Source: Bilabrum cf. latius
Taxonomy: Eukaryota
DNA: 64,000 nucleotides
Direction of reading: 5' to 3'
NCBI GenBank assembly: GCA_965178125.1
Contig: OZ237745.1
Coordinates: 806,001-870,000, forward strand
In this document: piece after piece, positions 272 through 64,000 of the stretch
How the letters are laid out: every line of letters begins with the position of its first letter
Position numbering within the stretch: position 1 is the first letter of the stretch
Translations under genes and position numbers: made by a program
The notes under the pieces: generated by a model
Told to the model about the DNA's origin: nothing
Seen by the model: the letters and a program-made list of their open reading frames with translations, nothing else
Databases searched by the model: none

Positions 272-3040
272 TCACAGGTGACGGGCCACCGCTGCGCGTC
301 GAAATTTGATGAGTGCTGCCCGGCGGGCCCCCATCATGGTGTCATCGAGCAAACGCAGCAGCCTGCCCACTGTTTGACGCTCTCCGGCAAATTGTCCCCG
401 CACCACGCAGCGGTACGGCCGCCTGGGCAGACGCCTGGATGTGGCAGAGGGCAGATCCGGGAGGGAGCAGGGGTTGTAGTCAGCTGGAATCTCCTCCTTG
501 ACCACTTCGTCTTTCCAATCCGCGCTCGCTAGTGCCGCCACAGCTACTTTGGGCAGGGTAGGCAGGCGCCCCCTCCAAGCAGGGGACATGGCACAGGCCA
601 GATGCAGCTCGAGAGCCGCCACCCAAGGCTGAGCCTCGGCCGCGCACGTTGGGAAATGAACGGCCTCAGCAAGGGGAACTGTGGTGCTGCAATCATCGTC
701 AGCATCATATGCACCTGCGCTTGTACCAGCACCAGTAAACGGGGCCTTGCGCTTGCCTTTCTTGCCCCGGCGGCGTCGCCTCTTGGTGCTCGTCTGGACA
801 CCTGCTGCACCAGTGGCCATGGCGCCCCTCCCGCCATGGAGCCGACCCAGTCGCAGCCTCATTGCCCCATGCAACTTGTTGAAGTCGACCTGCCTCCCTG
901 ATGCCCTGGCCCACATTCCGGGCAGGATTCCCGCGATTTCACCGACGAGAGACTTTGTGTCCGTGAACACCACGGCGGGAGGGCTAGGGATCCTCTTCAC
1001 GCTCACCCCGTTCGCAACAAAACACCACGCCGGCACTTCGATGAGGCCTACACAATCAAAATTTGGAAGCGAATTGATGCACATGGCAAGGAACCGCCCT
1101 CCCGCGGCGCTGGTGTATGGGCAGGGCGAACGGGCCGCCATCAGGGCGCCGGGGAGGAGGTACTCGGCCTCTGGGATCCACATTTTCTCGTCCGGGTCAA
1201 GCCTATTCGCCCATTCCCACTACGCGGCCGTGGATTCCTTCTCGCCGCTGAGCACGCGGTGCCTCCACACACGGACCTTGTAGAGCGCGTGTTTCTGTGC
1301 GCTCAGCAGCAGGCGCATTCCGCGGAAGAGACCATCCACGCTGCCCCGTTGCTGCTGCTGCCAGGTGCCTGCCGTCCCGTACCAAGTTGACACCCACTCG
1401 CAAGCGCCATCCGTCTCATCATTCAGTTGACTTTGGTCGTACTTGAAGTAGTCGGCCAGCACCCACTGCCTGGCCCTCTGGAAGCGGATCGCGGCTTGCA
1501 GCAGCTGGCCGAGCTGCTCGTCGATTTCAACGACTCCATCAGATGGAATCGGGAGGCGATTTTTGGATCGGAGGGACACTGTAGCCAGGGAGTGAAGGCC
1601 CATCGTGGCAGCATCCACCAGCTCCCCGATGCTTTGAATCGCTGGGAGAAGTGCCTCCTTGAGCTCTGGATTCGCCAGGCCGCTGCTCAAGTCGGCCCGC
1701 TCCTCTAGAAGCCTGCAGGCATCGTTGATTTGGCATCCCAACTTGCGAACGCACCGCATCCCGTACAATTCCAGGTGTTTAGCCAGCGGTTTAAGGCTCA
1801 AGCTCTGGGAGACGAGAACCTGCTCCAGCTGATTACGGGACTCCTTGGTGCCGCCCCCAAACATCTCTGGAGGGAAGTCAGCGCTCCACAACCAGTAAGC
1901 GCTTGCAGCGGACGCGCACAGGCGCAACCAGCGGTTAATACCGACGAGGCCCGGCCCAGGTCCAAAGCGAGCAACGTGGTCGTCCCTGTCGAGCAAGGGG
2001 ATGTGGCCCGCCTCCCTGGTGAAATTGGGAACGCTTCCGACCAGTAAACGGAGGGTGAGTTGCGCTGCTGTGCTTGATGTAGACTTTTTTGCTGCTTCCT
2101 CTTGAAGCGCGGCCGACGCCGCCGACACGATGGACCCCAGCACTTCCACGACTTTGGCTCTGTAAGCGAGCACGTGGTGCAGCTTCTCGCGGGGCTCCCT
2201 TCCCATCGCCATCATGTCGATGCCCCCCCATGCCTTGATGTGCTTGTGTCGAGAGAGAATTGGCCACACAGCGGTGTGGTACGGTCGGTACGGCAGCCGA
2301 CCAGAGGCAGCGCTGTGCGAGCCCTGGTCCACGGCGCAGCACACGTATTGCCCCTGTGAGCTTGGCACGTGGGTCCTCGGGTCAGCCCTCTCCCCGAAAG
2401 GGTGCCCGATGAGCATCCCTCCGAGATCTTTTGCCAGCAGTCCCTGCAACTCGCACGATTTCGCCCACTCCTCCACGTCGCCGGCCCGCATCTTGCTGAG
2501 CTTGCCCTCGCGTTGCGCGGTTTCCAGCCGGCCTTTGGCCTTTGAGAGCGCATCGATGCATCCCGACATCGTGGAATATTTGATGCAACGCTCGCCCATG
2601 CCGTGATCTTCAAGGTAATCTCGCTTACTTTGTGCATCGGAGTGCCCGAAGCTATCCATGGCCTGCCGAATTGCCCTGGTTGGCCCAACCGGGTCCTCAG
2701 CGATCGTCTCAAGGCTGACCATGATGCTCTTGGCCAGATCGGACTGTGCGAGCCCGCCAGATCTGCGCTGTGAGGAAAGAAAGCACGGTCAGAATGTTGG
2801 AGAGGCTGCCCGCTTAGAATACCTGGCATGTTGCTCTTCCTAGCAGCACCGCACCTCCGGCAGGTCATGCAGCGAACGCTTGCGTGGGCTCTTACACAGA
2901 TTGTGGCAGTGCTCCTGCCATGTTTCCCATGGCACTGAACCCTGGGTACGAACGTGTGTTTGTGGGCTGGGGAAACTGCGTGGTTGGATCCAGATCGAGA
3001 ATACCAGAATAATTTGTAAGGTGAGGATCCAACCGGACAT
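272..3040 (-). CDS. Hypothetical protein (~900 aa), possible N-terminal signal peptide; one short intron, 2 in-frame TAG
   Basis: ORFs 1220..2722 and 272..1183 are in the same frame, separated only by TAG (1220) and open sequence. Upstream exon 3040..~2824 (MSGWILTLQIILVFSIW...) joins via a GT..AG intron at ~2823-2762. Ends TGA at 272. No recognisable domain. Confidence 0.6.
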
Positions 3041-3116
3041 TTATAGCGTTATATTTACAAACTCGGATTTTCTTGCATGTTGGAAGGTACTCTGTTGCTG
3101 CTGTTCGCGTCGAATC

Positions 3117-3447
3117 ATGGCAGCACGAGGAATGGGACAACAAGGAAATGCTGAGATGCAGGCCATGTGAGCTTGGGCGAGTTGCAACTCACACCCGTTC
3201 ATATTGAAGTTGCACTTATTGCCAAGTGGTTTGTTTGCAGCCCACTGTCTCTTGCAGGGTTGCGTTGCAGGCTCAGCATCAGCTGTAGATGGTCATATTG
3301 AAGGCCTCTACATTCGCATTTGAGCGATGCACTACATCCAACACGACAGGCTCGCTCAGCAGCAAGGAGCAAACTTGCATTCGGGACAACGTCAACGCCT
3401 ACATGAGGACAAGATAGGCGCTTACCGGACAGGGACAAAACAATTGA
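3117..3447 (+). CDS. Small Tim (Tim8/9/10/13, zf-Tim10_DDP-like) mitochondrial IMS chaperone, 79 aa; absent from the ORF track
   Basis: Exon 3117-3166, intron 3167-3257 (GTGAGC..TTGCAG), exon 3258-3447. Translation MAARGMGQQGNAEMQAMVALQAQHQL[TAG]MVILKASTFAFERCTTSNTTGSLSSKEQTCIRDNVNAYMRTR[TAG]ALTGQGQNN-TGA matches the small Tim pattern 'C..xxLSSxEQxC...Y'. Confidence 0.7.
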
Positions 3448-3722
3448 TGCATTGATTTACATAGATTGTGAACAGAGACATTTGTGAAATTCAAGTCGAG
3501 CATGCCAATGATGGAGGATTGCACTTTCAATTGTCTCAAGGCGAATCGAGCATGCATGCCATCAGGCCACCACATTCAACTAATATAGATTAATTGTTGT
3601 TATTTGGCAACATCGTACAGGCCGTGGCCTCGCATTTGAGCTTGACTTGTTCTGCAGAAGCGGGTTCCGGTTTGAGTCGGTTCCCTGTTGTGCAACTCCC
3701 AAACTATCACAACTGGGAAGCC

Positions 3723-4787
3723 ATGCAGGCATCAAAGAAATCCGATAAGAAGCGGATGGCAGCAGCCATCGCAGAACAAGAGGACAGGCTGGCTGGATTT
3801 GGAAAGACAGAGGAAGGAAATGAGATGGAAAGCGGTGTGGCAACTGGTGTGGATGCGGACGACTACGCTGTCGGCTTGCAGCTCGACCCGGCCATGAGGA
3901 AAGCGTTGGCATCGGGATAGCACGTGAATGATGAGGAAGGGCTCCGGGAGGCCCTCGCATCGTTTGAGTAGAACGAACTGCCCTGGATCGAACGCCTTGA
4001 TGTGGTCTCGGCGAAACCTCTCGAAATTGAGGACGCCAGCGACGACTTGGCAAGGGAGCTCTTGTTTTATAACAGTGCACTAGCTGCTGTTCATGCCGCT
4101 CGGGGAGAGTTTGCCCGGCTCGGTGAGCCGTACTACCGGCCAGACGACTTTTTGGCTCAGATGCTCAAGTCGGACGACCACATGCGCAAGGTGCAGGCGA
4201 GGCTGGTCGGCGAGCAGCGCCGCATGGAGGCGGTCGAGCAGCGAAAGCGCGAAAAGGAAGCCAAGGAATTCGCAAAGCAGGCGCAGGCGGAGCGCTTGAA
4301 GGAGAAGGCAAGAGAGAGGAAGGACCAGGAGAAGGAGGTCGAGCAGTGGCGCAAGCGACGCAGGGGGCAGGGCGGGGCGGTAGGATCCGAGGACGCGGAC
4401 CGCGAGCTGGAGGACCTGCTGGAGAGGGGCCCAGGGCGGGCACAGGGCGCGGGCGCGGGCGCGGGGGCGGGACGTGGCCGGGGTCGGGGTCGGGGTGGTG
4501 CGCCCATGGCGGGAGCCAAGCGCAGGCGCAAAGACGACAAGTACGGGTTCGGTGGGGGCAAGAGGTACAGGAAGGAAAACGATTCCGGGTCCTTCGGGGA
4601 GGGAAGGTTTAGCGCCCGACAGAACAGACAGCTGCCGACTGGCGTGCGCGGCCGGGGGCGGGGTCGGGGTCGGGGTGGCGGCGGGGGCAGGGGCAGGGGC
4701 CGCGGGCGTGGTGGGGCGGGTGGGTCTAGGCCAGGCAAGGCGGCGCGTGAGGCGTCGTTTGCCCGGCGTAAGGCAGGCCGCGGGTGA
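3723..4787 (+). CDS. EBP2: rRNA-processing protein EBP2
   Basis: LPWIERLDV, DDLARELLFY, PYYRPDDFLAQMLKSDDHMRKV, KRRRKDDKYGFGG and the C-terminal RPGK motif. Two in-frame TAG (3918, ~3969) link the 3594..3920 and 4002..4787 ORFs. Start codon provisional; ends TGA. Confidence 0.92.
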
Positions 4788-4947: not shown

Positions 4948-6922
4948 TCAGAAGGACTTGTGCAAGCGAACCATGACCACACCGCCGTCTGCCTCCACGC
5001 TCCTGGCTGCAAGGCCCTGCGACAGCTGCACCGTGCCGTTGTCGGTTCGCTGAATGACGTCACGAATCGTGGCGTTGGTCGAGGCGTCCCAACCTGTTGC
5101 CTCCTGCATGCACATGGAGTCGCATGATATGTCCGTTGAGTTCGGCCCAACGTTGAGGTAGGTCAGCACCACACTGCCGTCGGACATCAGCTTCGACCAG
5201 ACGTTTGTGCTGCCCTGTGGCGGGGGTACGCCGAGGCACAGGTCGGTGCTGGCCCGGGGCCGCACGGACCCGTCGGTTCCCACCGTCCACGTGTCGTACA
5301 CGGCCGTGCCGGCAGCTTGGTCGCAAGATGACGTGACGATGTCAAACTCCGTGGGACCACCGGCCTGTTCCGCCACGAGGCACTGCCCGTTGTACGCAGA
5401 TACGATCCGCCCCGAGGCGCTGTCGTAGCTGAACTGCAAATTGGTGTAGTTTCCGCTGCCGGCGCAGGTGGAACCGGTGTCAACGCACTCGTAACCAATC
5501 ACCTGCTGGCTGCAGTCGTCTAGGTTGAGGCACTTCTGGGTCGCCTGGTTCTGGATGTACCCGCTGGGCAGGCCCTTCGGGTTAAGGTGCCACGTCTGCT
5601 GGGAGGGCACTGCGCCGGTGATACCCGCACTGACAAGGGTGCTGTCGGATGGTGACCCGCACGGGGACAGGGTCAGCTGCACCACGTCACCAGAGGAGGG
5701 CTGCAGGTCGCCGCCTGCGATTCTCTCCCCTTGCCTCACCAGCGGGTCCTGGTTCACCGCGATCACCTCGGGGTTGGAGTAGGTCGCGAAGCGGTAGTCG
5801 CTTAGGTTGACCACGTTCTGGGACAAGATCAATGGGGAGGCCATGGTGGCCCACATGGCGAACTGGGCGCGGGACTAGAGGTTTGTAACGTGTTGCTTGC
5901 CGGATATGTCCTCGCCCAGCAGCAGACACGGATCGTTGTATGCCCCAGGGCCCGCGAATCGTCCAAGCCTGCTGTTGATGTCAATGTTTGTGAGCACGCC
6001 GTGCCAGTTGATGTCATCAGGCCCAATCCGCCAGCTCTGCGCCCCGATGGCACGACCCACGGCAGCGTACTGGGCATGCCACCCGCAGAGGTTGAAGAAC
6101 ACGTCATCGCCCCGCGTTGTGTTCCTCAGTGCCTCCGCGAACAGGTGGTACTGCTGCATGCCTACGTCCACAGAGGACGGGGCGTTGCACGAGTCGCTCT
6201 TGATGTAGTCGAACTCCATCACGTCTGCGAACTGGGTGGCATCGATGACTTCGTGGCCCTCTGCGCCGGGGCGGCCTCCGCACGTCTTGGTGCCACGGCA
6301 CGTGTCTGCGGGGGAAGCTTAACGCGGCATAGAATGGCACGCGTGGCTGTCTGGCCGACTGACATACAACCCAACACGACCTCATCTTGAATTCCAGGAC
6401 GCTAGTTTGTAACTTACATATACCACTTTTGAAGCCCATTGCGTGAAGCTTGTCGTTCATGGCTTTTACGCCCCCCGGGAACTTAGACTCGTCTGCAATT
6501 AAGGTCCCATTGGATAGGCGCTGCACGAACACGCCATCATCGAGAGACACGGTGTCATAGCCAACCTGTGCGATCATAGGACGGTTAATTCAAGCGTAGC
6601 TTGTACGCAAGATGGTATTGGGCTTCGAGGCTACGGGACAAAATTGCGCGCCCCTCTCACGTCCTTTAACCCGGACTTGAGGAAGAACTCCGCAACTTCC
6701 AGCTGCTGTTGTGCCGTTGGGTTCATCGTTGCATAATACCAACTATTGTACGCTGCGTGGAGCAATCGAAAAAAGTGACTGGCCTGGCGAGTTCCAAAGA
6801 GGGGCGGCCGTGCAACTAGAGCTGAAAGCGATCCAGGATCCACGGAACGTACCCATCGGCGGAGTCCGAAAGTTTGAGGCCGCGTGCCCCATCGAAACAA
6901 AGGACAGCAGGGAAACCAGCAT
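4948..6922 (-). CDS. Secreted alpha-galactosidase (GH27) with an inserted ricin-B lectin domain; 3 introns
   Basis: Signal peptide, then TPPM.YNSW, SLDDG, ADESKFPGG, FDYIKSDSC, SWRIGPD, GPGAYNDP, [TAG]SRAQFAMWA, NPEVIAVNQDPL. CL/QxW repeats at ~5200-5650. Introns at ~6852-6753, ~6660-6569 and ~6417-6306 (approximate). Confidence 0.88.
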
Positions 6923-7160: not shown

Positions 7161-8804
7161 TCAGTATCCACCCCCCGCACCGCCCCTCCCGCTGCCGCCC
7201 CCGACAGCCTCTGCGCCGTACCCGGCCCCCATTCCCGCAGCCTCCCCCCCGTCCCCACCCCTCGATGGGGACATCCCCTCCATCCCCTCGAAGGAGGGGG
7301 GACCCGACGGCGCCCGGGGCGCTGATCCGATCCTGCCGGCCCCAGCCCGGTCAGAAGAGCCATGGCCGCCGCCAGCCTGAGACTTGCTGCCGGCTCCCGC
7401 CCTGCTCCCCGGTGTGCCCAACCCCCCGCCAGCGGTTCCGCTACCGGCGCCGCGCGACGACGCCTTCTGGGCCGCCGACGAGTAGAGTGGATCCCGGGCC
7501 CGGATGGGCCGCGCTCGTGCCGCTAGCGCTGTCCTAACCTCGGTCTTCTTCTTGGAAAGTTCGACCGCTTGCTTCTGCTCCAGCACCGCCATCACGTTGC
7601 GGTTTCGCTGGAGCAGGCGCTTGCTGTCTTGCTCGAGCTGCTTGAGGTGCTCCCTTCTGCGCCCCTCGATGCGCTTGAGGAGCGCGGCAAGCTCGTTCTG
7701 CTGCTGCTACCTGAATTTTGCTTCCTTCTGCCTGAAGTACCCGAGCCTGCCCTCGTCCATCTTGCCGCGCTCTCGCTGCTCCAGCTGGTCGGCGATTTTC
7801 TTGATTTTCATCGCCTCGCCGTACTTTTTCTGCTTTGCGAGCATGTGCTCGCGCTTGCGCCACTCCAGCAACTCTCTGGAAAACTTTGGCGGCTTCTTCT
7901 TGAGCTCTTCGTTCAGTTCCTGCTGGTAGTCCCGGAGCGCCTGCTCGTGCTTGACGGTCATTTTCTAAATGTAGCTTCGCGCCATTTTGTCGTAGCCAGC
8001 AAGGTACTCGTCCCACTTCGCATTGAATTCCGCAAACTGCATGTTGTGTGCAATCTGCACGTCCTGCTTCTCGGCTTCATGGCGCGCCTTCAAGGCACGA
8101 AGCTACCGCTTCTCCTCCTGCTTTCGCAGCATGTCCAACTATTTCGTTGCTCGCTCCGCCTCCAAGTAGTTGCCTTCGGCCTCGCACTTCAGACGATACT
8201 CATCTAAAATCCGCAAGAATTCCATAACTTTGGGGTCGGGACCTTCATCAGGAAGTCCACCAGCGTACGAGTGGATCAACGAAACGAACTGCTCGAAGGT
8301 GATCGTGCCAACCCGATCTGGATCTATGTCCTGGAGCATATCAGCAGCTGCGATGCGTGATTCATGGAGGGATCTAGATCCAACCCGAGTGCAGCGGAAA
8401 GTGGGCCATTGTCACGATTGCAGTGAAATACGACAACATGACGGTTTCATCGCAATGCATGCTCGGCCACCGACAGAAACATCCCATCGAACTCACCGGC
8501 GGCTGGATCCTATCCAAGTTTTTCAAGTGCTGCCTCGAGGTCTCTACTCGCCATTCTGGCTGTCCCGTCAACATCGAACTGTCGGAAGACCGTGCGAAGC
8601 ATCTCGAGGTCAGCATCGCTGATGGCTGGGGCCGAGCTGCCCCTATCCTGCAAGAAAGCACGGCAAAAGGATACAGGAAGAACCCAACAATATGATTGTC
8701 GGCAGAGAAATCTTTCCAAACAGACCTTTGGCGGAGACGCAGATCGTGCTGGTGCACGCCTTGGCAAAACTTACATGTGATGCAGCTCCTCCTGCTGCGG
8801 CCAT
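7161..8804 (-). CDS. EF-hand (calmodulin/centrin-like N-terminus) plus long coiled-coil protein; 2 introns, 5 in-frame TAG
   Basis: ATG 8804, intron GTAAGT..TTGCAG, then FRQFDVDGTARM...EKLG[TAG]DP, intron, DIDPDRVGTITFEQF. A continuous coiled coil follows, read through TAG at 8139, ~8103, ~7964 and 7707. Ends TGA at 7161. Confidence 0.8.
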
Positions 8805-9042: not shown

Positions 9043-12000
9043 ATGGCTGCGTCAGGAGCATCTATGCCTATTAAGGTCCAAATCGGGGACGCAGCGTACC
9101 GAGTGCGCGTCGGCGGCTTTTCTGAACTCTTGCATGCAGTCCAGGGGTTTGCAGGAGTAGAGAGCCCCAAAATGCAGTACCAGGACTAGGACTCGGATCT
9201 CATCAATCTGTCCAGTGATCAGGAATTCGCAGAAGCTCTGAATGTTGTGGAGGAAAGCAGCATGTCCTGCTTGAAGGGTGAGACGTAGTCGTTTGTTTGA
9301 CTGCATGCCTTTTGGCGCGTTTGTAATCGCGATGGGGCAACATTTTTGATGAAAGTGTCCCAAATGAAAATTGTAGGCGTTGTGCAATTCATTTTTGTGC
9401 CTGGAAAGCTATCGTTGGTGGCTGTGACGGGTTGGACACGGGCTCTTTGTCAGGAAATTCCCGTTCCGGTTGTGCAAGATTTGCGCTTCTGTCTGTTCTG
9501 AAGGCCTACCTCTTATGAAGTGGCACACATTTATTGCTTGTGTTGCGTGCTTGCTTATTTGGGTCGCAAGCGGCCGCTGGACTAACTTGCTTTGTTGTGT
9601 CTACCCGCTTGATAGTGTTGCTCCTTTCTCCGTGTTCCGCAGTGGTCGTCAGCATCGATTCGAAGAAGAAGAAGGGCAAGCATGCATCGTCTAAGGCCAA
9701 AGCCACTGCGGATGCATTCGTACGCCGCACGATCGGGTCGATCCAGCAGGCGATCGACCGGGCGGTCGAGGACTACCGCATCACCACCGGTGGACAGGAC
9801 GTGCCTACCGCCACAATGGCGCGCGCAACCTCAGTCCTGGATTCCTGCCGACGCAAGGCAGAGAAGCTGGCGGAGAAGCTAGGGGGATCGCCCAAGCACC
9901 AGCTGCGCAACGCGTTTGCTCGTCTCTAGCAGCGGGGCGCCAGCAAGGCCGCCGCCCCTGTTCAGAAGGCAGAGTCCAAGTTCGTCAGCGACCTCGTCGA
10001 CTCTTCCGATTCGGATTCCGACCGCGATGCAGATGCAGGCAAGGCAGAGGCCGTGGATGCTGCCGCCGCAGGTGACGGCGCGTCGGCCGAAGCAGATGCG
10101 CAGCCAGAGCCGGAGGATCCCGGGGCTGCCTCCGGTGCCGCCGCCGCGTCGGACGAGACGCCAGCGTCAGCGTCAGCGTCAACCTCTGCACCGGGCCACG
10201 GCTCCATCCATCGCCTACTGAAGGGCGACCTGATCCGCCTCGTCATGACCGCGCTGCCGTCCATGGCCAACCCGATGCTGCACGCCGGACTCAAGGCCAT
10301 CGTGCGGGACCCGATGAACGCCCCGCTCATCGAGGAGCTCAAGAAGGCCGCGGAGAACAACAGCCTGGACATGCAGACCGCAGTGGAGATGGTCCGCAGC
10401 AGCGGGCGCATCCTTCCCGGCGTGCGCACGTTCGCCAAGATCGCACCCGACGTCTGCACTGCACTGCTGCCCACGCTCATCGAGCTGCTGACCCGCCTCG
10501 GTTTCGACAAAGACGAGGTCATCGCTGCCCACATGCAGGGCAGCATGGATGGGCAGGCGCCCGACGCCAAGAAGGAGAGAGAGGAGCTGTGCGAGGAGGA
10601 CGCTGCACCTGCCGAGGACCCTGTCCTGGGCTTCCTGCTCGACAGGCTGCCCCCCTTTGTCAAGATGGCGTTCCTGGGCGGCGGGCGAGGGCGCCGCGGC
10701 TGCGGCGGAGGCCGCAGGCACCACGGCGGCGCGGGAGGCGGCCGTGGAAGAGGCCGCGGTCGCGGTCGGCGCTTCGGACACGGCGGCGGCTGCGGCTGGC
10801 GCCGGTGCCGCGGCAAGGGCGACAAGGGCGCTCAGGTCGACTGCGAGGACCCTCGCTTCGAGCTCGCGATGAAGGCCCTTTTCGGCGGAGACGCCGAAGA
10901 CGAGACAGAACTCGTGCAGGAGGGTGATGATGACGCGACTGCGACCGCTGCTGCTGCCGCGCCTAGCGGCGTGGAGTCGGCGGCGAGCGGCGCGGGCTCT
11001 GGAGGTGACGAGCTCCCTGTCGGCGATGCTGCAGCAGAGGCTGCAGCTGAGGCCCAGGGAACCGGTGCCGACGAGTCCGTGGTGGCTGCGCTGATGATGC
11101 GGATGGGCCTTCCCCTGCGCGCTACGCAGGTCCGCCACCGCGGGGTCGTGTGCGACGGCTGCGGCATGGCTCCGATCATCGGCCCGCGCTTCAAGAGCGC
11201 CACCAAGAAGAACTACGACCTCTGCGCTATCTGCGAGAGGAAGGAAGCCGCCAAGAGGGGAGACGTGTACCTCAAGATCAACCACCCGGGCCAGGCGCCC
11301 GCAGGCATCAGCGTGATGCTGCGCGACGAAGCCGAGCAGGTCGGCGATGAGGCCAAGAAGGCTGGCCGCGGCGCGTGGCGCAAGCACGGCTGTGGCGCCA
11401 GTGGTCATAAGCACGGTCATGGTCACGGCCACGGTCGTCACTGGGGCGGACGCCGCCATTGCGGTGGCGGCGGCGGCGGACACTGGCGCAAGTGCGGCGG
11501 CTTGATGCGGGAGATGTTCGCCGCCATGTGCCGCAACGGCGGCATGCCAGGTCAGGAGGGCGACAAGCACGTCTACTTCGGCCCCGATGCGCGGCAGCAG
11601 GAAGAGGAGAGCGCCAGCGGAGCTGCTGCTCCCGAGCCCCAGGCCTCGGCCCCTCCTGCCTACGAGCAGGCGCAGGCAGACAAACAAGCCGAGGAGTCTG
11701 CCAGCCCCGAGGAGATCGAGATGCAGAAGGCCATCCAGGCCTCTCTTGACGCTGATGACGCCGCACGCCGCGCCAAGAAGGCGGTCGAGTCTCAGAACCT
11801 GGTTGGCACCGCTGCCGCTGTGGCTGGGGCGGTCCACGTCGCCCTTGAAGAGCAGAAGCAGAGCGCTGCCGACCGGGAGATGCCCATGATCTCGCTGCAG
11901 CCTGCAGTCGAGGCCAAGACGGAGGAGCAGGTGACGCAGGCCACCGAGGATGCCGCCGATGCCGCCGCCAGCGGTGCTGGCGCTTCTGAGAGCAAGGAGG

Positions 12001-13004: not shown

Positions 13005-13431
13005 GGATTGATGGCCTCTTCATGGCGGGCAGCTCGATGCTGTCGATTGGTGGCGTGACGGCGGTGATGCCGTTGGGGTGTGCTCCTCAAGTCGTTGCGG
13101 TGGGCGATGGCAAGGGGTCTGAAGTTCGATTCGAAATTGGGATTGCAGTACGTTTGGTGACGGAGATGTCGCTGGTGCTCAGGTGACCATCGCGCTTGGC
13201 GCGAGCGGTTACCTTTGGAGCGTGTAGCCAGCGGCAGCTTGCACTCCATCCGGCCTGCGGCGGCGCGTCCAGTTTTGGTGCGCTGCTGAAATACAAGATA
13301 CAAAATATCAACAAATAATTCGGTTTCTCCGACCTCAACTCAGCCACAACCACGGAATGCAGTGCATCGCTTGTGGCATTCGGAATGTGGATCGGATTCG
13401 ATGCAACACCATCGACTCGACATACTATCGA

Positions 13432-15356: not shown

Positions 15357-15447
15357 TGCTATTCGACGCTACCAGAGTGCGCTTCCGCAGAACAACGCGT
15401 TTTCACCAGCTCACTGCCTGCTACTGACCGCGCCCATCTAGTGGCAC

Positions 15448-18879: not shown

Positions 18880-18999
18880 GGGTCATTTACAAGTGAATTG
18901 CAATGGAAGTTAGACACGTACTAAGGTTTCTTCAAGAAGGCACTGTGCACCGCGATACAGTCAGGGACAACAGAATCCACACTGCCACTCGAACAGTCC

Positions 19000-53900: not shown

Positions 53901-55821
53901 GTTGCTGGGGTTGTGCTTGCAATCAGCACCGCGGTATTGTTTGGATATCGGCGCAGCGAGTCCCAAGGCTGTCACGGGAGTGGCAGACCCGCTGGCGCGC
54001 AAGGCAGCAGTAGACGTACCGACCGCCGCGTGTCGCCCAAGCTCGCCTCTCGGGGCTCGAACAAGAGACTACGTAGGAGCCAGTGCGAGTTCTGCTGCGG
54101 TTCGCCATGGTTCATGGGACAGAGAGGCCCTCAGGGCATTCTCGAGTCCCCATCGACGGTCATCTCGATAGTCGCCACTTTGCTCGCGCTGGTCGCGACT
54201 GCTGTCATGCACGTGGCAGGGTCTGTCGATGTCATTCTGGAGGCTGTGCTCGCCGTCCATATGGTGGTCCTCGTGGCGCGTTACCGAGGCCTGCTCGGGT
54301 CCACCATGGCCTTCACTGCGTCATGCATTGGTGTCGCAGCGTCAATCACGAACGGTGACATGAGGCAGATATCGCTGGTGGCAATCGTGCTGTTCACCAG
54401 CTCGACCACCGTAGCAACGCAATGCTACGAGGCGGAAGTACAGACGCGCCAAAAGTTCATCATTTCGTTTACCGTAAAGAAATAGAAGGGAAACTGTCAG
54501 GCGCTGCTCCGCAACATGCTCCCTTCAGGGTACCACGTGGAGCGCCTGATGCGGGGCGACGATGTGGTGGAGCAGCTCGACAACGTCGTGATGCTCTACT
54601 CTGACATCGTGGGATTCACCCCGCTGGCGGCCAAGCTGCAGCCACATCAGCTCATCACGCTGCTCCACGACCTGTACGAGGGCTTTGACAACAAGCTGGA
54701 GAAGTCAAGCAGCAGCCTTTACAAGATGGAAACGATCGGTGACGCATTCATCGTGTTGGGAGGGCTTCGTGCATCATCAGAAGCTGACAGGAGCCGTACA
54801 ACAGCTGAGCGCAAACGCAGGGAGAGCTCGATCACTGCTTCAATGGATAGATTCAAGCAGAGCGTCTCGCTGGGAAGCTCGCTCGCTGCCAGCGGTGCAG
54901 TGGTTCAGCGAGGCGGACAGCAGGACGGCACAGCAGCCGGTCAATCCCACGATACGTTTCGTGACACAGCTTCGGGGCCTAGCACGAACGGTGCCGTCTC
55001 GAGCGACGACGCCCACAACGTGCCAACAGCGGCTGTGCGAGCTACAGAAGAGCCACAGGATGAAGCGGATGCCGAGTCGGCAGCCGGGTCGGTAGTGGTG
55101 TGTGTTGGGCCGGGAGAATCCAACGCGCTGGAGCTGGCACCGATGCAGGCTGGCGGGCACGGTGAAGGTCGCTTGGATGAGCAGGCAAAGGGACGGCGCA
55201 ACGAGAGCATCAGCCAGACGGGAGGAACTGCGATGGGCCGAGTTGCTGAGCATGATGAGCAAGCCTCTAGTGAGGGGGCGAACCGGGACAAGGAGCCTGT
55301 GGCAGTCCAGCAACAGCGACCACGAACGGCTCCTGCCTCGGGCCGGGCTGCCCTTATTGCGCAAGACGCGCGAGCTATCGCTAAGTTTGCCACAGATATG
55401 CTGGCCGTGATTGCTGGCATCCGGGTCAAGTACGACTTGCCCGAATTCGACATGCGGATCGGCATCCACGTTGGACCTGCCGTGGGCGGCATCTTGGGCG
55501 AGTCGAGGCCCAGGTACTTCGTGTGGGGGGAGCACACAACTAGAACCGAGGCCCTCGAGTCCAAATGTCCACCGGGGCAGATCCTAGTATCGGATGCGGC
55601 AGCAAGGCTGATCGAGCGTGCGTCAAGCAGCGGAGCTGCCTTTGACAACGAGACCGTGGTGACCGTTGGCAGCCACTCCATGGTGGCCCACCAGCTCCGG
55701 CGGGTTGGCAGCCGCGAGGTGGAGCGAGAGCCAGTGGACATTCCTGAGATGAGCTCCAGCCCAGAGCCCGATGCAGGCCCCGTGCAGCTGCCAAGGGTAA
55801 GCCCGCTGCAGGCATGAATGC
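50975..55821. repeat. Inverted segmental duplication of ~26458-32010
   Basis: Homology starts ~175 bp upstream of the ATG (gcgaacgttcgattt / ctcagatcaactcg) and stops 4-5 bp after the TGA (gcaggcatgaatgc). Confidence 0.92.
51150..55817 (+). CDS. Class III nucleotidyl cyclase copy B (~1555 aa), near-identical inverted paralog of 26462-31837; 7 in-frame TAG
   Basis: Same motifs and near-identical peptide sequence to copy A. TAG at 51291, 52215, 52707, ~52764, ~52806, 53460 and 54483; ends TGA. Confidence 0.9.
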
Positions 55822-55915: not shown

Positions 55916-58900
55916 TCACGTGATATCCATTGCCGCATCCATTAGTGCCTGCAGCTCGCGCAGGCTGGATGCGAGCGACTCTGCCGTAGCTGGCGATCCA
56001 TCTATTGCTTCATCCTGGTCACCATCGAACGCGCCAGACAATACCCCGGTCCGATCTCTCGCGCACAGATCATCTGCTTCAGTGGAAGGGATGGACCGGA
56101 TGAGCCCACCACCTGCCCCCACATCAGCAGCAGCTGCTGCTGCCACGAGTGGGGGCGCTGGCGTCGCACCCCTCTTTAGAGCGTCCGTGTCATCCGCGCG
56201 GCTATCATCACTCGCAAGGGTGCGGCGAGCTAGTTCGAGCGCAGCCGTGTACTCGTGGCCCCTGTCAGCCACGCCTAGATCCGTTCGCCCTGCTGCTGCT
56301 GCAGCAGCGGTGCCCCAGGCCGCCCCACGACCGCCCTTTCTCCCACCCTCAGCCGAATCTACTTCGTTGTGCCCGCCCTGCGATCCTCCGGCGAGCACTT
56401 CATCGATCTGTCTCTGCAGCTTGTCGAGAGCGTCATGGACCTCGCGGGCCTCTGCGCTCAGCGCCGGCTGCTCGGCCGCCCTGGTACCTGCTTCTGAGGC
56501 TCTTGGCTGGACGCCGGCAGCGACGTCGTCCGCGCTCACGTCTGCATGCCCTGCGCTTTGGGGCTCCAACAGATCCAACGGGCTCTCGTACGCCTCGAGC
56601 AGTTGTTTGGCCCTCGCCTGCAGCCTCTCGGTGTCGCGCATCGAAGACAGCCGACTGCGTCCATCATCGTCGTCGTCGTCGTCGCTACTACCGCCCTCCT
56701 GCTGCTCTGCGCCTGCGCCTGCTAGACACGCGTCGTCTGCGCCTTGCTCTCGCTTGCTTTCCTCGATGACCCGCCGGATGGCCCTCCTCAGCTCCCCTTT
56801 GGACAGCGCGCGCAGCACGCCGGTTTCCTGGGCCCCGTCACCCGGCGGTTGCACCACCGGTGCTCTCCTGGACGACGACCCGGACTAATTGCCGGGATCT
56901 GTGCGTCGAAGCGCCTTGAGAGCCTAGTCTAGCTTGCTGAGTTGCTATTGTGCTGCGCTGGTTGGTCCCAGCACGTCCTCTGCCGGTGCTGGGCGCCCTA
57001 CAGACTCCTCGCCATCATCACCGCTCGTGTCGCCCTGGCCCTGCGCCGCTGGACCGGCATGACCGGCAGCGGCCTCACCGCCCAAGCCCCAGCCCGTGAG
57101 AAAGAAAGAGGGCATCATGACCAGTGGATTGGTGCGACGGGGCGCGGGCTGCTGCCCAGATCCAGTGCCAGCACCCGCGAGTGACGGGGCCACGTGGGCC
57201 TGACCCTGCGAGGCCGGTGCGCCTCCTTGGCTTGCTGCCTGCTCGAGTTCCCGTTCCTGCCGAATGCGATACTGCGCAAACGGGTTCTCGATCGGGGTCG
57301 GGGCGCGATCTGTCGCCTCCTCGCTGCCTGCCTCCTCGCTCTCCTCCCCCGTCCAGCCGGCCGCGTGATCTCCATCCGCCTGGTCGGCACGGGCCGCTGC
57401 GTCGCCAGCCGCCCGTGCCCTGTCCAGCAGCACGCTGGCATACTCGCGCAGATCGGACTCATCGTCTTGCGCAACGATGCGACTGCCTGGCCTGCTGCCG
57501 CGGCCCGGTCCGGTCACGCCATCTGCTCTGCCACGAGCCGGAGACTGTGGAGCAGCGCCACCAGCCTGCCTGGTTCCAAGCAATACGCCTGCCAACTACC
57601 GGCCGGTGGACCGCGCTTGCGGGGGCGTGGACGCGGCCTGGAGAGCCCTGGCTCGGACGCCCTTGGCCGGCAGCTTCTTCTTCACGCTCTTGGACGCAAA
57701 CTGCCGCAACTTTGCCGCTGCTGCCGCGCTGGGCAGCTCGGGATCTCGATCGGCTGCCGGTGCAGCCTGCTTGTCGCGACCCTTGGAATGCGGCGATGCT
57801 GCCCGCGAGGCACCCTCCTTGGTCTGCGTGCCGGCGGTTCCGTCGCCGAGCTTGCTCGACCTCGCCACGCCCATCAGGCCCAGCCTCGCGTACTTTTCTC
57901 GCTCTTGGCGCTGCTTCTGAATGTGCGATGCACGGTCCTGCAGCTCCAGGGCCTGGGACAGCAGGCTCCTGGCCGACGCGAGGCGAGCGGCGCGCTTGTC
58001 GAGGGCAGCTTGCTGCTGCTCCAGCGCGTTGAAGTCTTCGATGGACGCGCCCTGCTGCTGGCTCCTCTCCGCCGCCGCCCCCCTGCTAGACGATGCAGCC
58101 AGCCTGCTGCTTCCAGGACGTCGCACCCTAGCTCCCGAATCAGGAGTGCTTCGTCGCGCGCCATTTCCTGCAGCGCGTCTCCCAGGACTCCCGCGACCAC
58201 CGTGCAGTGCCCCACCCGCCACTGCGGCGTCGCTTTCACTCCCGAGCCGGCCAGGCGTCCCCGGCACCCCTTGCTGACCGTCCTCCTTCTTGGATTCAAA
58301 GGTGCCGATTCCCCGTTGGCTAGGAGACTACCCCTGTCGGTGCGCTGCCCCCCTCGTGGGGGTGCCACCCGAAGTCGTCCTGTACCCCTCTGCCCCCCTC
58401 CTGGGAGTGCCACCCGGGGTCGTCCTGCCCTGCCGAAGCGCGCCATCAATGTTGGTGCTGCTGCCGGTGTGCCGAGCGGATGGAAGAAGCGCGCCGCACT
58501 GGATCGGGGAGCGCGGCGCGCGCTCCATGGGCAGAGCAAAGGCTCCGGTGGTGCCCGCCTCCCCGGGGATTGCCTCGGCGAAGGGCGTCGCTCCCACGGA
58601 GCCAGAAGCCCCGCCCGCATCCACCGCAGCGGCGGCGGGCACGGCCCTCTCCTCCTGCCCCAAAATGTCGGTCAGGCTAGTTCCCGGCCGTTGCGTCCAA
58701 CTAGCCGATCCGGGTTCACCATCTTCCATTGGCATCTCCCCCGCATCGCCGCCGGCCCCTTCCCTTCCCGCCCCTTGACCCCCCCCGGCGACGGGAGCGA
58801 CGTACTCGCCCAGCAGGGAGCGCGACGCGACCGGCACGGGTGCCGGGGGGCGCCTGCGCCGGACCCCCGATGAAGATGACGAATGAGGGGCTTGGGCCTG

Positions 58901-59749
58901 TGCGGACGAGCGGGGAGCAGAGGACGTCTGCTCCCCAGATCGACTGGCGCCGCCGCCCGCGGACGGGTTGGGTGCGAAAGGCTGCCAAGCCGCGGCGCGC
59001 TGCCGCTGCTGTCTCCCGCCACCACCCGACGCCCGCCCCGGTGGTGGGAAGCCGGCGGCGCCTGCTTGCTCCTCGCCGCTGCCCACACCGTGCCCCGCAC
59101 GATCGGAGCGAGGAGGAGAGGCTCTCGAGGGGCTCGGGGTGAGGGCAGCGGCTCGCGCCGCCCGAGCAGCTGCCTGCGATCTTGGTCGCAAGGCAGGGGC
59201 CTGCTGCGCGACGACTGGCGGGCGCGAGCGAGGGGGTGCGCCTTCGGGCTGCGCTTGCGAACAACCAGCCGCAGCCACAGATACGCCGCGCCTTACGCCC
59301 GGTGCCATTCGGCCTTGAGGGCTCCCGGCCGGCACCCTTGGACGCTAGGATGGGCTGCTCGCGGTGCCGCCGACCCCCGTCGCCGTCAGTGCAAGCCCGG
59401 ACGCGTCCCCTCCTTGACGGCCCCACACATCGTGCGATGTCTGCCGCGAACCTTGCCGTCGCGAACTGCCCCTGTCATGGCGGCGGGCCGATCGGGTGCT
59501 GCGATTCCTGGTTCTGGTAGGAATCATGGGGGAGACTGCCCTTCTCGATCCCCGTTCGGCACTAGAGCGCTCACCAACGAATCGTTGTGATCTTCTCGAC
59601 ACCATGCCACTGTCGGGGTTCCTTGATGCAACGGGTGATCCCGCGCCCGGTGCGCCGGCGCTTTGCGCAGAGCCAGGCCGAGACAGGACCGCGTGCGAGC
59701 CAGCCCGGCCCAAGGTGCTCCTGCGGCTGCCGGGGCCCCTGCTACTCAT
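55916..59749 (-). CDS. Hypothetical low-complexity/coiled-coil protein (~1280 aa); 6 in-frame TAG
   Basis: Track ORFs 59345..59923, 58328..59335, 57596..58267, 56945..57595 and 55916..56857 share one frame, separated only by TAG. Ends TGA. Confidence 0.7.
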
Positions 59750-60063
59750 GAAGCAATTCGAGCGCGGCACTATCGGTATCGAGTTCGGTTGAAACGAGCA
59801 CGTACGCTGTTTCGAGCCGTTCGTCGCCCGTCCGTCCTCAGCGCAACGAAGGTTCGTTGAGGGTTCCTCGCAGCAAAGCTTCGCTGCGGGCGGCGCATTC
59901 GCGTGGACCTGCCCGTCGCACATTCGCTATTTGGACTTCGGAACGGTAGCAGCCGCCTGCGTTTTGAGCACACGCGCCAGGAGCGATTGCGGCGACGCAC
60001 CGCGACGCACCACCCGCGGTGGTCGATATAAGCTGGATTGGCGCTGGCGAAACAGCGCCGGCC

Positions 60064-61782
60064 ATGAGTTCAGATTCCAGTGGAATTTCCGCAGAAGACT
60101 TGGCCATTCTAAAGGCAGAGGCGGCAGCCTGGCGGCGAATGTGTGCCGTGCAAGTGCAGGCAGCCACGGTGCCGAGCACAGCAGCCGCCGCCGCCGGATC
60201 CTCCGCTCCCGCGACGTCCCGCCCGAGCTCTACTTCAACCGCCGACGTCGTCACCGTCAACGTTGGTGGCAAGCTATTTACCACAACCAGATCCACCCTG
60301 TGCCATTTCGAGGGGTCCAGGCTGGAGGCGATGTTCTCGGGGCGCTGGGACGCTTCGATGCCCAGAGACAGAGCAGGAAACCCGTTCATTGATCGCGACC
60401 CGGAGTTCTTCGGCGTCATTCTCAACATGCTTCGCGATTTTGACGCGGCGGGCGGGTCTTTCGCCAGCCAGGCCCAGGAAGAGGCGGCCGCGGCTGCCTC
60501 GCTGCTGCACCACCGGGCGGCGAGCGGCCCGGCGAGCGGCCCGGCGGCGGCGGCGGCGGAGCTCTTCGCCTCTTCCCCCGGTGGAGAGGAAGCACCAAGG
60601 TCGTCGTCCCACCGGCTGCCGCTCCCCGAGACTTTCTTTGAAACGGTCGCTCCGACCGGCGAGGCGGGCGCCCCGCCGGACGGAGCGGGAGCAGGATCCG
60701 AAGAAGAGGACCGCCGGGACCGCCGCCCCGATTCCTCCGGGCTCGGGTTTGGGGAGGAGGAGGGCGCGTCCGTGACGATCGACGTGCCCCCGGAGGAGCG
60801 CGGGCGGTTCGTTCGCGAGCTCGATTGGTACCACCTGACCGAGCACGTCTACGGCTCCCCGTTCCCCTCGAGCAACGTGCTGAGCAGGGACGCCCGACTC
60901 CAGCTGTTCCACATGTTTGACGAAACAGCGCACGCCGGGGAGCAGTGGGAGCTGCTGTACCAGGCGAGCGCGCACGGACTGACCCCGGGTGCGTTCCACG
61001 GCCGGTGCGACGACGAAAGCGTGGGCCCGACGGTCGTGCTCATCCGCACGGAGTTGGACTGCGTGTTTGGGGGCTACTATGACGGCTCCTGGTCGCCCGC
61101 TCGTCACACCAACCTGGCAAAGTCCAGGTCGTTTCTGTTCATCTTTGAGACGCTGCGCGGGTCTTGCGCCCACAAGCTGCGGGTGGACGCGGACCCCGCC
61201 GGCAAGCCGCTCGTGAGCCAAGACCCGGGGTTTGGGCCGCTCTTCGGGGTCTACGTCCCCCAAAAGCGGCCGTCTGTGTGGGGTGCGGCCGGCGACCGCC
61301 GCGCAGGGTACCGCCGCGACGCCGGCGAGTGGCAGCAGCAGCAGCAGCAGCAGCAGCACGCCGGCGGAGGCGGGACCGGGCCCGCGGGGCCGGCTGGCGG
61401 CGTCGGGCCGCCGCGGGCCGATGTTCGAGGCGGGGCCGGCGGCATTGGAGGGGACCACCAACGGGGGGGGGAGGAGGAGGATGCGGGGGAGGGAATCCTT
61501 GTCGGTGGCGACGAGGACGAGGAGCCGATGCAAATCAAGAACGCAATCTGCGCGATTCACAGCGTGAACCCGAAGATAGGGTTTGCGACGCTCGGCACGC
61601 CAGGCTGCCCGTACGAGTCTCCGCCAGGCTGGACCGACTGCAGGCACATCACTGGAACCGCGTCTGGCCAGTTTACCATCCAGGAGATTGAGGTGTTCGC
61701 GGTGCGCGGGACTCTTGCAAGGAAAGCGCAGGGATCTGACGAGGGAAGCCCCGGTAGCGTCGTCGTCGACGACGGGAGATGA
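60064..61782 (+). CDS. KCTD-type BTB/POZ + TLDc domain protein
   Basis: VVTVNVGGKLFTTTRSTLC...SRLEAMFSGRW...FIDRDPEFFGVILNMLR; TLDc WELLYQASAHG...FHGRCD..GPTVVLI...VFGGY...SFLF...FTIQEIEVF. No internal TAG; ends TGA. Confidence 0.9.
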   Translation: MSSDSSGISAEDLAILKAEAAAWRRMCAVQVQAATVPSTAAAAAGSSAPATSRPSSTSTADVVTVNVGGKLFTTTRSTLCHFEGSRLEAMFSGRWDASMPRDRAGNPFIDRDPEFFGVILNMLRDFDAAGGSFASQAQEEAAAAASLLHHRAASGPASGPAAAAAELFASSPGGEEAPRSSSHRLPLPETFFETVAPTGEAGAPPDGAGAGSEEEDRRDRRPDSSGLGFGEEEGASVTIDVPPEERGRFVRELDWYHLTEHVYGSPFPSSNVLSRDARLQLFHMFDETAHAGEQWELLYQASAHGLTPGAFHGRCDDESVGPTVVLIRTELDCVFGGYYDGSWSPARHTNLAKSRSFLFIFETLRGSCAHKLRVDADPAGKPLVSQDPGFGPLFGVYVPQKRPSVWGAAGDRRAGYRRDAGEWQQQQQQQQHAGGGGTGPAGPAGGVGPPRADVRGGAGGIGGDHQRGGEEEDAGEGILVGGDEDEEPMQIKNAICAIHSVNPKIGFATLGTPGCPYESPPGWTDCRHITGTASGQFTIQEIEVFAVRGTLARKAQGSDEGSPGSVVVDDGR

Positions 61783-61989
61783 ACCCACCATCCTCCTCGC
61801 AGAGGGGTTCGCAGAGGGACTCAGTGGAAGCCAATGCAGCGTCGTCATCACTGGTAGGACTCGGGAGATAAACCTGCTTGTTTGGCGCGCGCTGCGTGTT
61901 GCCATGTGCAGCAGTGGTGGTAGGTTGCATGCGTTTAGGATTCCAGACAAAGGAACCGTATTGTTTCGATTTCCTCGAATAATCTTTCA

Positions 61990-64000
61990 ATGCTAAACTA
62001 GTGTCATCAAGAGAAGCATCGCGATTCGCCTGGAGCCGCCGCTGGAGCTACCGCTCGAGCCAGCAAATCCGGAGCTGCCGCCGGAGCCGCCTTCGAAGGG
62101 TGCGTCAGGACGGGCTGCTTCCGGGCGGTAGACGACGAGTCGGCCGAGGGCAGGCTGCACAGCAGCCTGCCCATGCGCGCCCTCCGGGTCGTGTACATCT
62201 GCTGCGCCGCCAAGAAGAGGAACCAGGAGGGGCGCATCGAGGACGGGATGCAGTGGCTGGAGTCTCGCGGCCTGCTGGTGTCTGGCGGAGGCGGCCTCGG
62301 CCACAAGGCGGGCCGCTGGGATTCGAGCACGCGAGGCAAAGGCAAAGGGAAAGGGAAAGGCAAGGGGAAGGCCGGCAGGGGCGGCGGCAGGGGCAGCAGC
62401 AGCACCGGCGGCCTGCAGAGGCCCCGCCTCTGCGTCGTGACGCACGCGAGCGACCCCGATCGCATGCTCACGCACTCGCACGGATTCCTGGCAGTGGGGA
62501 ACGAGAGGCTCTTCGATGGCGACGGGCACGGTGTCAGCTGCTGCAAGATGGGCAACGACTACGCGGAGGCCCAGGAGGCCGCGACGGCGGCGGCCGCCAG
62601 GACAAGGGCCGGCGCGATGCCCCTCGCCCCCGACCAGAGCAAGGCCAGCGGCGATCATCACGATGCAACGAGCGAGGTGCTCGCGGGCCTGGTCGGGTTC
62701 ATGAAGCTTCGCCTGCGGGGGCTCACCAAGTCGACAGGGCCGTTCAGGGCCATGGTGGACAGGATGCAGGGCCTGGTGGCACCAGAGCAGGCCGGCGGTG
62801 CGGAAGAGGACGCCGGCCGGGCGGAGAAGCGGCACGTGCTGGTCCTTGCCGCCCTGCAAATCGCGGGGATCAAGGACGGAGGCAGCTGCCCTAGCTGCCC
62901 CGCTCGAATCGCAGACGCGCTGGAGCGGGCCGAGAGAGCGGCGCCGGCCGGCAGCTTCGCCGAGGGAAGAAGGGTGGACGTGCTCAGGCCCATCGTGGGC
63001 GGAAACGCGCAGCCGTACGAGGCTCTGCAGCAGAAGGTCAAAGGCTCCTCGGGCAAGACCAACCGCCTCGCAGGGGACTGGATGTCACCGGGCGGGATCA
63101 AGGTGAAGGTCTTCAGGCGGGTCCTCCGCTTCTTCCTGCTCGGGGGAAGCGGGCCGAGCGAGGGGTCCCAGGGAGGTGCCGGCTCCGCCGCCCCCGGCAC
63201 TGGGGCCAGCAGGGCACGCGTCCTGGACCAGAAGCAACTCCTGGCGAGCCGCGCGTACGTGGACTTCGAGGACCCCTGGGCGCAAGACGGGGCCACGAGC
63301 CACAAGATCAGCTCGGTGTCGTGCTTCGACGCACGCGTCCTGGGGTCATCGCTGGAGCTCGAGCTGGAGGCGGAGGCGGAGGCGGAGGCGGCCGGACCCA
63401 GCTCCAGCTCCAGCTCCAGCTCCAGCTCCAGCTCCAGCTCCAGCTCGAGCGGATCTGTCGAGCCGGAGGAGCTGTCGGTCAGGGAGATACTCGGCCGGCT
63501 GGGCGACGAACCAGCGGGCGCAGACGACCGCGAGCCGGACCGGCTGGTGTGGTCGGCCAACATGATGCACACGAGGCTGCCCCACCCGGATGCCGCCAGT
63601 TTCTGGGAAGCGAAGGTTCCCTGCGTCTTCCTGCAGCTGGACAGCAGCGTCGCGGGCGTGTGGGCCGTCACCCGCAAGCAGAGCGGGCGGACGGCAGCGC
63701 CGGCAGGGGGGTTGGCGGCGGGGGCGGGGGCCGCCGCAGCAGCAGCAGGGCCGGCACCTTCGGCATCATCGTCGGCATCTTCTTCGGCAGCGCGTTCGGT
63801 CATCCCGCTGCCGCCAGAGGTGCCTGGCCGCGAGGGCATTCCTCTCGCACCGGCCTGCCGGCCTAGCGTGCAGCGCAACATCAACCGCATCGTGCTGGCC
63901 TGCGCGGCGACCAACCGCCGCTAGGTGCAGCAGCTGCTCGTGGTGCGGCTGCCGGACGGGTCGCGCGCGCTCCTCGCCGTGGCCATGGGCACGCGGGTCG
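61990..64000 (+). CDS. Hypothetical protein, truncated by the window end
   Basis: ATG 61990 (MLN[TAG]CHQEKH...) is in frame with 62173..63924, and the frame stays open after TAG 63922 to the window edge. Confidence 0.6.
63398..63447. repeat. (CAGCTC)n hexamer microsatellite encoding poly-Ser
   Basis: Direct reading of the tandem cagctc array. Confidence 0.9.

Follow-up and report, generated by a model that had tools for sequence, protein, structure and literature searches.

The window analysed here, a stretch of 64,000 nucleotides (nt) of contig OZ237745.1 (positions 806,001–870,000 of the forward strand; Bilabrum cf. latius, GenBank assembly GCA_965178125.1), contains many genes with in-frame TAG codons, and the comparisons described below make it very probable that UAG is decoded as glutamine (Gln, Q) in this organism. 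The same reassignment had been proposed in an initial annotation, and it is now borne out by four independent lines: by TAGs in invariant Gln columns, by the pairing of TAG with CAG and CAA in two relatives, by a likelihood comparison and by TAGs retained in RNA. The window represents a piece of a GC-rich eukaryotic nuclear genome (G–C content, GC, of 60%) with typical eukaryotic nuclear genes: a 64-kb multigene contig carrying multi-kilobase genes and spliceosomal introns of 95–365 nt. Pfam or PDB matches identified APC1, G-beta, EBP2, an NAA30-like acetyltransferase and two adenylate/guanylate cyclases, and thus the identities originally given to APC1, EBP2, G-beta and NAA30 hold. Further genes identified by Pfam code for an NBR1-like ZZ/Ig protein, an alpha-galactosidase with a ricin-type lectin domain, an RNase III and a branch-2 histidine phosphatase; ankyrin, TM2, BTB/TLDc and beta-helix proteins are encoded as well.

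Under the standard code, the longest stop-to-stop open reading frame (ORF) of the window is 695 amino acids (aa) long. When TAG is read as sense, seven ORFs of 2237, 1861, 1638, 1444, 1203, 1161 and 1144 codons emerge; in simulated windows (n = 50, first-order Markov), the longest TAG-sense ORF was 528 aa, and the longest ORFs averaged 414 aa. Reading TAA as sense in addition lengthens none of the eight longest ORFs, and reading TGA as sense gives a maximum of 1032 aa. The 24 ORF models (17,355 codons, counted after the first ATG) contain 99 TAG, 533 CAG and 213 CAA codons, with TAG making up about 12% of the Gln codons; this list counts one beta-helix gene as two ORFs and includes two overlapping ORFs at 38–40 kb. 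Three extra in-frame TAGs are found in RNA-supported upstream exons, at 20190 and 19912 in the G-beta gene and at 8510 in a gene for an EF-hand protein. These figures agree with the earlier manual count of roughly 100. As was also stated earlier, frameshifts are not involved, and the TAGs break nearly all of the gene models without a change of frame. At least one TAG is present in 21 of the 24 models, compared with 23 of 24 in the initial annotation, a gap that comes from how the gene models are drawn, and all 24 are terminated by TGA. Nearly every gene of the window, essential ones included, thus uses TAG efficiently as a sense codon.

Comparison with distant homologues revealed two TAGs in columns that are invariably Gln. 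The C-terminal 1198 residues of APC1 served as the query of an exhaustive profile-free search, which gave 148 homologues among the 150 listed proteins, and TAG 48664 (FHPqPA, with the TAG as q) lies opposite Q in 146 of 146 aligned sequences. TAG 19912 of the G-beta gene (SASqDG) lies opposite Q in 29 of 29 G-beta homologues, these being the usable matches of a search set to longer proteins, which skipped G-betas of normal length. Both sites had originally been named as conserved Gln positions, and both proved to be so. Two other sites named at the same time fared less well. TAG 20190 is indeed opposite Q in human G-beta-1, but the column is not near-invariant (K in 19, R in nine and E in one of the 29 G-betas), and TAG 8510 (KLGqDP) does align with the Q of the calmodulin motif SLGQNP, but the gene encodes an EF-hand plus coiled-coil protein rather than calmodulin. 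For the alpha-galactosidase, three solved structures have Q, Q and E, respectively, at the position of TAG 5875. Other TAG columns are variable. The remaining three of G-beta have K/R/E, P/R/T and S/G/T; among 145–146 homologues of APC1, aa 1161 is occupied by P, E, Q and others, and aa 1386 by G, E, S, Q and others, while aa 2084 and 2196 are unaligned in this comparison. The TAGs of EBP2, for which only eight homologue matches were available, fall in variable or gapped columns and are uninformative, TAG 42525 of NAA30 is opposite T, K, T and E in PDB chains, and a comparison of the EF-hand/coiled-coil protein with PDB gave no match.

Closer relatives allowed the codons themselves to be compared. 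The two best APC1 matches, P0135 (99% identity) and P0136 (97%), were predicted with the standard code on a single 10-kb contig, which belongs to a very close relative. P0136 has Q at TAG 47389, where it reads straight through, and ends exactly at a CAG of the window; P0135 ends directly before TAG 48664. The relative carries TAG at a CAG site of the window, and vice versa. A metagenome scan with an APC1 fragment yielded two further contigs, L001 (20,153 nt, 55% GC) and L002 (1,962 nt). L001 harbors orthologues of eight window genes, with identities of 96% for G-beta, 66% for NAA30, 50% for the ankyrin protein, 48% for APC1, 37% for a conserved protein of no Pfam family (unk15451) and 36% for RNase III. 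Its longest ORF is 357 aa under the standard code, versus 2321, 1098 and 728 aa with TAG as sense. Its orthologous codons (n = 5717) include 62 TAG, 0 TAA and 0 TGA, and TAG accounts for 26% of its Gln codons.

Aligned columns of the window and L001 with TAG in exactly one partner were then collected; the corresponding percentages for ordinary Gln and for the next-best residue also include L002. Without a flank filter, TAG was opposite Gln in 19 of 63 pairs (Q-Q, 37%), and the shares were 17 of 37 (Q-Q, 52%) where at least three of eight flanking residues were identical, and 15 of 26 (Q-Q, 66%) where at least five of eight were; the next-best residue paired with Q at about 5% at each threshold. 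In a likelihood comparison based on the substitution frequencies of these alignments, Gln came out 33–38 log-likelihood units (nats) ahead of the runner-up, Lys; Glu was further behind, and Leu and Ser were rejected. In the G-beta gene, all three TAG differences from the L001 orthologue are opposite CAA or CAG (19750 opposite CAA, 19243 opposite CAG). L001 has CAG at the APC1 TAG sites 48664 and 47389 and CAA at TAG 42525 of NAA30, and the TAGs of unk15451 meet CAA, CAG, GAG and one shared TAG. In total, two TAGs are common to the window and L001, and 37 are unshared in reliable columns. The reading of UAG as Gln is common to the window organism and its distant relative L001, and is thus a trait of a clade and not of a single species.

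The retention of the TAGs in RNA was examined in sequencing runs. A run search by sampled words of the window returned four runs of one sample, probably the source, with 99% of the words; three runs from two other studies (X5, X6 and X7) with 33–84%; and four more (X8–X11) with small shares. Contigs of X5, X6, X7 and of a DNA run (X1) were compared with positions 3500–23499, the material being assembled contigs and not raw reads. The contigs of X5–X7 contain GT..AG joints (CT..AC on the minus strand), none of which occurs in X1. Such joints were found in the G-beta gene (19764–19862 and 19916–20025), in the EF-hand gene (8348–8496 and 8647–8773), in the NBR1-like gene (9277–9641) and, three in number, in the alpha-galactosidase gene. 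The same contigs have loose poly(A) ends at 13315, and their depth varies between genes from about 5 to about 1900. The NBR1-like gene (9096–13315, plus strand) stands out in all three runs with a word depth of about 490–1930, compared with about 5–150 for its neighbours, although the depth of contigs reflects expression poorly.

At least 14 in-frame TAGs lie under the RNA contigs: 3918 and 3969 in EBP2, 5875 in the alpha-galactosidase, 8510, 8139, 8103, 7965 and 7707 in the EF-hand gene, 9927 and 12015 in the NBR1-like gene, and 20190, 19912, 19750 and 19243 in the G-beta gene. No base differences from the genome were listed over 3500–23499 in any run. The contig pieces that cover TAG sites show no other letters, among them those of X6 and X7 over EBP2 (3722–4428/4437), of X5, X6 and X7 over the EF-hand gene, and of X5 over the RNase III gene (20538–22213). 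Exceptions occur in the NBR1-like gene, where the contig of X5 and that of X6 have one difference each, at an unstated place; the X7 contig of this region has none. Thus, in-frame UAG is present in mature mRNA. As RNA contigs and DNA carry the same letters at the TAGs, the possible refutations named in the initial annotation (splicing-out, editing and C>T errors) are excluded for these sites; the TAGs stand unchanged in spliced and polyadenylated contigs.

Regarding the other two stop codons, no in-frame TAA was found among the 17,355 codons of the window, whereas about 40 would be expected alongside 99 TAGs if TAA also encoded Gln (from the CAA:CAG ratio). In L001, TAA terminates the APC1, histidine phosphatase and RNase III genes, in each case at or close to the place of the window's stop, while the other four orthologues end in TGA; the TAAs of the L001 APC1 and phosphatase are located within two or three residues of the corresponding TGA of the window. 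G-beta and unk15451 have TGA at a conserved C-terminus. The ORFs of the window are full-length compared with their homologues, and hence are not cut by sense TAAs. Because TAA terminates genes in L001, the code of the clade is UAG = Gln with UAA and UGA as stops (NCBI table 15). As TAA is never a terminator in the window, its role there is derived from the relative and from its absence in frame; on these grounds, UAA is likely to be still a stop in the window organism itself. It would probably be a terminator that is hardly used, with UGA as the working terminator, and a GC higher than that of L001 is in keeping with the sole use of TGA in the window. The original suggestion that UAG alone is reassigned is upheld to this extent. 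No TAG terminates any of the 24 window models or of seven L001 orthologues, and so there is no sign of an ambiguous code, although 24 plus seven genes is a small sample.

Several observations weigh against UAG = Gln with UAA = stop. About half of the L001 TAG pairs are non-Q (E, K, S, R, A and others), as is also the case for ordinary Gln, and many TAG columns are variable. Between the two cyclase paralogues, the six differing TAG sites lie opposite CAG, GAG, TCG, TTG, AAG and CTG, i.e., opposite Gln in one of six; six sites do not suffice to identify the amino acid. Q neighbours beside TAG (11 of 93; 0.118) are no more or less frequent than beside Glu (0.116), the rate for Q being 0.169, and thus do not discriminate. 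ARAGORN and Rfam searches detected no tRNA or other RNA genes in the window, and tRNA and Rfam scans of L001 and L002 were also empty, and eRF1 is not encoded in the window, so that tRNA-Gln(CUA) and the altered eRF1 are putative parts of the explanation. None of the listed runs is recorded as RNA; X5–X7 are labelled as RNA only as a guess, and their RNA nature was deduced from the joints and poly(A) ends. TAA terminates none of the 24 window models. Furthermore, the evidence for UAG = Gln is drawn from DNA, RNA contigs and sequence comparison.

The most serious alternative is that UAG and UAA both encode Gln (as in NCBI table 6), with TAA being rare owing to high GC. With TGA at the end of all 24 models, the window offers no demonstration of TAA as a stop in this organism, and, according to the portions of PMC5304391 and PMC11687900 that bear on this point, UAA and UAG usually change meaning together. 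This explanation is nevertheless very improbable in view of the missing in-frame TAAs, of the ORFs that TAA as sense fails to lengthen and of the TAA terminators of L001 at conserved C-termini, with 0 TAA against 62 TAG in 5717 codons. An ambiguous code, in which UAG would be Gln inside genes and a context-dependent stop at their ends (Condylostoma/Blastocrithidia-type), is no more credible and ranks slightly lower. Such codes do exist, as far as can be judged from PMC4967479 and 10.1101/2022.04.12.488043, and the sample here comprises 24 genes; however, no window model or L001 orthologue needs a TAG end, and G-beta, unk15451, the histidine phosphatase and APC1 reach their conserved C-terminus and stop at TGA or TAA.

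The chance that the TAGs are artefacts or defects (a systematic C>T error, pseudogenes, RNA editing or removal by splicing) is negligible. Windows from a single assembly may hold systematic errors, and public standard-code gene calls do break at the TAGs. Against this, the DNA and the RNA contigs of X5–X7, three runs from two other studies, have the same letters at the TAGs, the splice joints lie at other places, independent metagenome contigs share the feature at mostly other positions, with two TAGs in common, and the frames run without TGA and TAA over thousands of codons. There is just as little to be said for UAG as a sense codon for another amino acid (Glu, Leu, Lys, Ser, Tyr or pyrrolysine). 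UAG = Leu, Ser or Glu is known elsewhere, according to the cases given in PMC11687900, and some TAG columns are opposite E, K or S, but TAG occupies two invariant Q columns (146/146 and 29/29), the likelihood of Gln exceeds that of Lys by the margin reported above and that of Glu by more, and the three TAG differences of the 96% identical G-beta orthologue all meet CAA or CAG.

Decoding of UAG as Gln could be brought about by a tRNA-Gln with the anticodon CUA, which would have been derived from tRNA-Gln(CUG) and would read UAG but not UAA, together with a putative loss of UAG affinity by eRF1 that leaves its recognition of UAA and UGA intact. Such an anticodon change, coupled to changes of eRF1, is the route usually taken. 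According to the relevant part of PMC5304391, tRNA-Gln(CUA) of Tetrahymena reads UAG and not UAA, and eRF1 is altered in UAG-only lineages (T32G in Iotanema, alanine at position 69 in rhizarian exLh), with such changes weakening the recognition of G at the third position. Once UAG is Gln, CAG<->TAG transitions would be silent, which would explain both the share of TAG among Gln codons and the fast turnover of TAG positions between relatives, and which fits the TAG/CAG swaps with the very close relative.

The features of the window are summarized in Table 1.

Table 1. Features of the 64,000-nt window, with TAG read as sense.
Feature	Position	Strand	Codons	In-frame TAGs	Termination	Introns, matches and other data
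unk275, no Pfam family	272..2788	−	838	1220	TGA	
EBP2 rRNA-processing protein	3594..4787	+		3918, 3969	TGA	Pfam Ebp2 (4.8e-60)
Alpha-galactosidase with ricin-type lectin domain	4948..6853	−		5875		At least three introns; Pfam
EF-hand and coiled-coil protein	7161..8774	−		8510, 8139, 8103, 7965, 7707		Introns 8348-8496, 8647-8773
NBR1-like protein (ZZ and N_BRCA1_IG)	9096..13315	+		9927, 12015	TGA (13002-13004)	Intron 9277-9641; poly(A) near 13315; Pfam
Histidine phosphatase (branch 2)	13539..15356	+		15234	TGA	Pfam; TAA of L001 two residues from the window end
unk15451, conserved, no Pfam family	15448..18882	−	1144	12	TGA	
G-beta	19000..20279	−			TGA	Exons 20026-20279, 19863-19915, 19003-19763; two GT-AG introns; spliced coding sequence of 356 aa with no other stop; Pfam WD40_Gbeta (1.2e-82); PDB alignments
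RNase III domain protein	20328..22502	+	724	12	TGA	Pfam Ribonuclease_3; L001 orthologue with 15 TAGs and a TAA end
Coiled-coil and leucine-rich repeat (LRR) protein	22590..26201	−	1203	8	TGA	
Adenylate/guanylate cyclase A	26462..32047	−	1861	10	TGA	Pfam Guanylate_cyc (3e-75)
Ankyrin-repeat protein	40756..41709	+		3	TGA	Pfam Ank; L001 CAG opposite TAG 41257
NAA30-like N-acetyltransferase	41892..42836	−		42756, 42525, 42144	TGA	PDB, human NAA30 (3.8e-18)
APC1	43234..49947	+	2237	15	TGA	PDB, human APC1 (E-value, 1e-77)
Adenylate/guanylate cyclase B	50901..55817	+	1638	7	TGA	Pfam Guanylate_cyc (3.4e-76)
Low-complexity protein	55916..60250	−	1444	8 (6 after first ATG)	TGA	

The two cyclases (26465–32047 on the minus strand and 50901–55814 on the plus strand) are inverted paralogues with 1433 of 1621 aligned residues identical; their N-termini are near-identical, and four TAG positions are common to both. 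These features suggest that the pair arose by a recent duplication, the copies of which flank about 19 kb. In L001, one 20-kb run contains the genes for TM2, Ank, NAA30, APC1, RNase III, G-beta, unk15451 and the histidine phosphatase, in this order. The order in the window differs: the block from the histidine phosphatase to RNase III is upstream of APC1, and about 16 kb (22.6–38.7 kb) with the LRR protein, cyclase A, beta-helix genes and others lies between RNase III and TM2. A GA/GC-rich simple repeat at 16492–16572 codes for (AG)n in unk15451, and the DNA contigs of X1 break there. In the region coding for the Gly/Arg-rich EBP2 tail, one X5 RNA contig has a G inserted after 4671 (depth 12 of 63); a variant may account for it, as may an assembly error in this low-complexity stretch. 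In the last 8 kb (56000–64000), where GC rises to 68%, long ORFs are open in several frames on both strands and the gene models are uncertain; they include an open-ended ORF at 61783–64000 with five TAGs.

Public protein collections contain only standard-code fragments that end at TAGs for the window regions 275–2722 and 4951–5856 (P0286, P0287 and P0288), and unk275 is split at its TAG into two entries, P0286 and P0287. APC1 of the very close relative (the counterpart of 46351–49944 of the window) is represented there by fragments of 200 and 268 aa (P0135 and P0136). The standard-code fragments of the window are singletons in a cluster look-up, five of eight guessed fragments are absent from the collection, and a protein atlas search with a standard-code fragment gave no usable match. 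The annotations that exist for the organism and its relatives are therefore fragmented, and without table 15 any annotation, BUSCO score or phylogenomic use of the organism will be in error.

Searches for named homologues of EBP2, G-beta and the cyclase gave no close named relative (for the cyclase, six matches without lineage names). An aphelid affinity was considered, as the best named EBP2 and G-beta matches are fungal, and was rejected because Amoeboaphelidium has a GC of about 40%, as given in the genome data of PMC10608142, compared with 60% in the window. The GC of Nuclearia thermophila is 44%. The literature searched, which takes in few subscription journals, contained no account of a GC-rich lineage outside the ciliates with UAG = Gln, although one may be in print. 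The window organism thus represents a further case of a known but rare kind of code, of which it is probably a new member, and an independent origin of the code is likely. A fuller reading, that of an undescribed independent origin of UAG = Gln with UAA = stop in a GC-rich clade that is neither ciliate nor fornicate, old enough to hold members with APC1 only 48% identical, and with UGA as the sole terminator in a GC-rich member, is tentative and has slightly less than an even chance, since its lineage has not been placed and genome and RNA data of recent date are already available. If it is true, the uncoupling of UAG from UAA arises repeatedly outside ciliates, and the clade allows tRNA-Gln(CUA) and eRF1 to be compared across a deep split.

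Nuclear code changes are rare, and the separation of UAG from UAA is rarer, being confined, among the cases described in PMC5304391 and PMC11687900, to Iotanema, Protocruzia, a few phyllopharyngeans, one rhizarian and Scotinosphaera. A further lineage with genome and RNA data and a deep relative would add an independent case for the co-evolution of eRF1 and tRNA-Gln. UAG = Gln with UAA as a stop, termed "genetic code 15" for TAG = Gln in the pertinent passage of PMC9523058, is described for the fornicate Iotanema spirale (PMC5304391, in part) and for Protocruzia tuzeti and two phyllopharyngean ciliate lineages (in the relevant section of PMC11687900). The list of UAG-only systems in the initial annotation was therefore right that such cases exist but incomplete, since it lacked Protocruzia and the phyllopharyngeans as Gln users. 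The window organism resembles these systems in having UAG as Gln and UAA as a terminator, the latter as seen in its relative L001. It differs from I. spirale, whose primary stop is UAA, in the use of UGA in 24 of 24 models. It is further set apart from the table 15 systems by the GC, gene lengths, introns and multigene contig given above, and a GC-rich, intron-bearing multigene contig is presumably unlike ciliate macronuclear DNA. The table 6 systems (many ciliates, hexamitin diplomonads, oxymonads, some ulvophytes and Amoeboaphelidium protococcarum) share with it UAG = Gln, probably via a mutated tRNA-Gln, but in them UAA is sense, whereas here it is absent in frame and is a terminator in L001. 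Finally, the systems in which UAG has another amino acid while UAA still terminates (rhizarian exLh and some ciliates, with Leu, and Scotinosphaera, with Ser) have UAG and UAA uncoupled in the same manner, but they decode UAG as Leu or Ser, whereas the window organism very probably decodes it as Gln.

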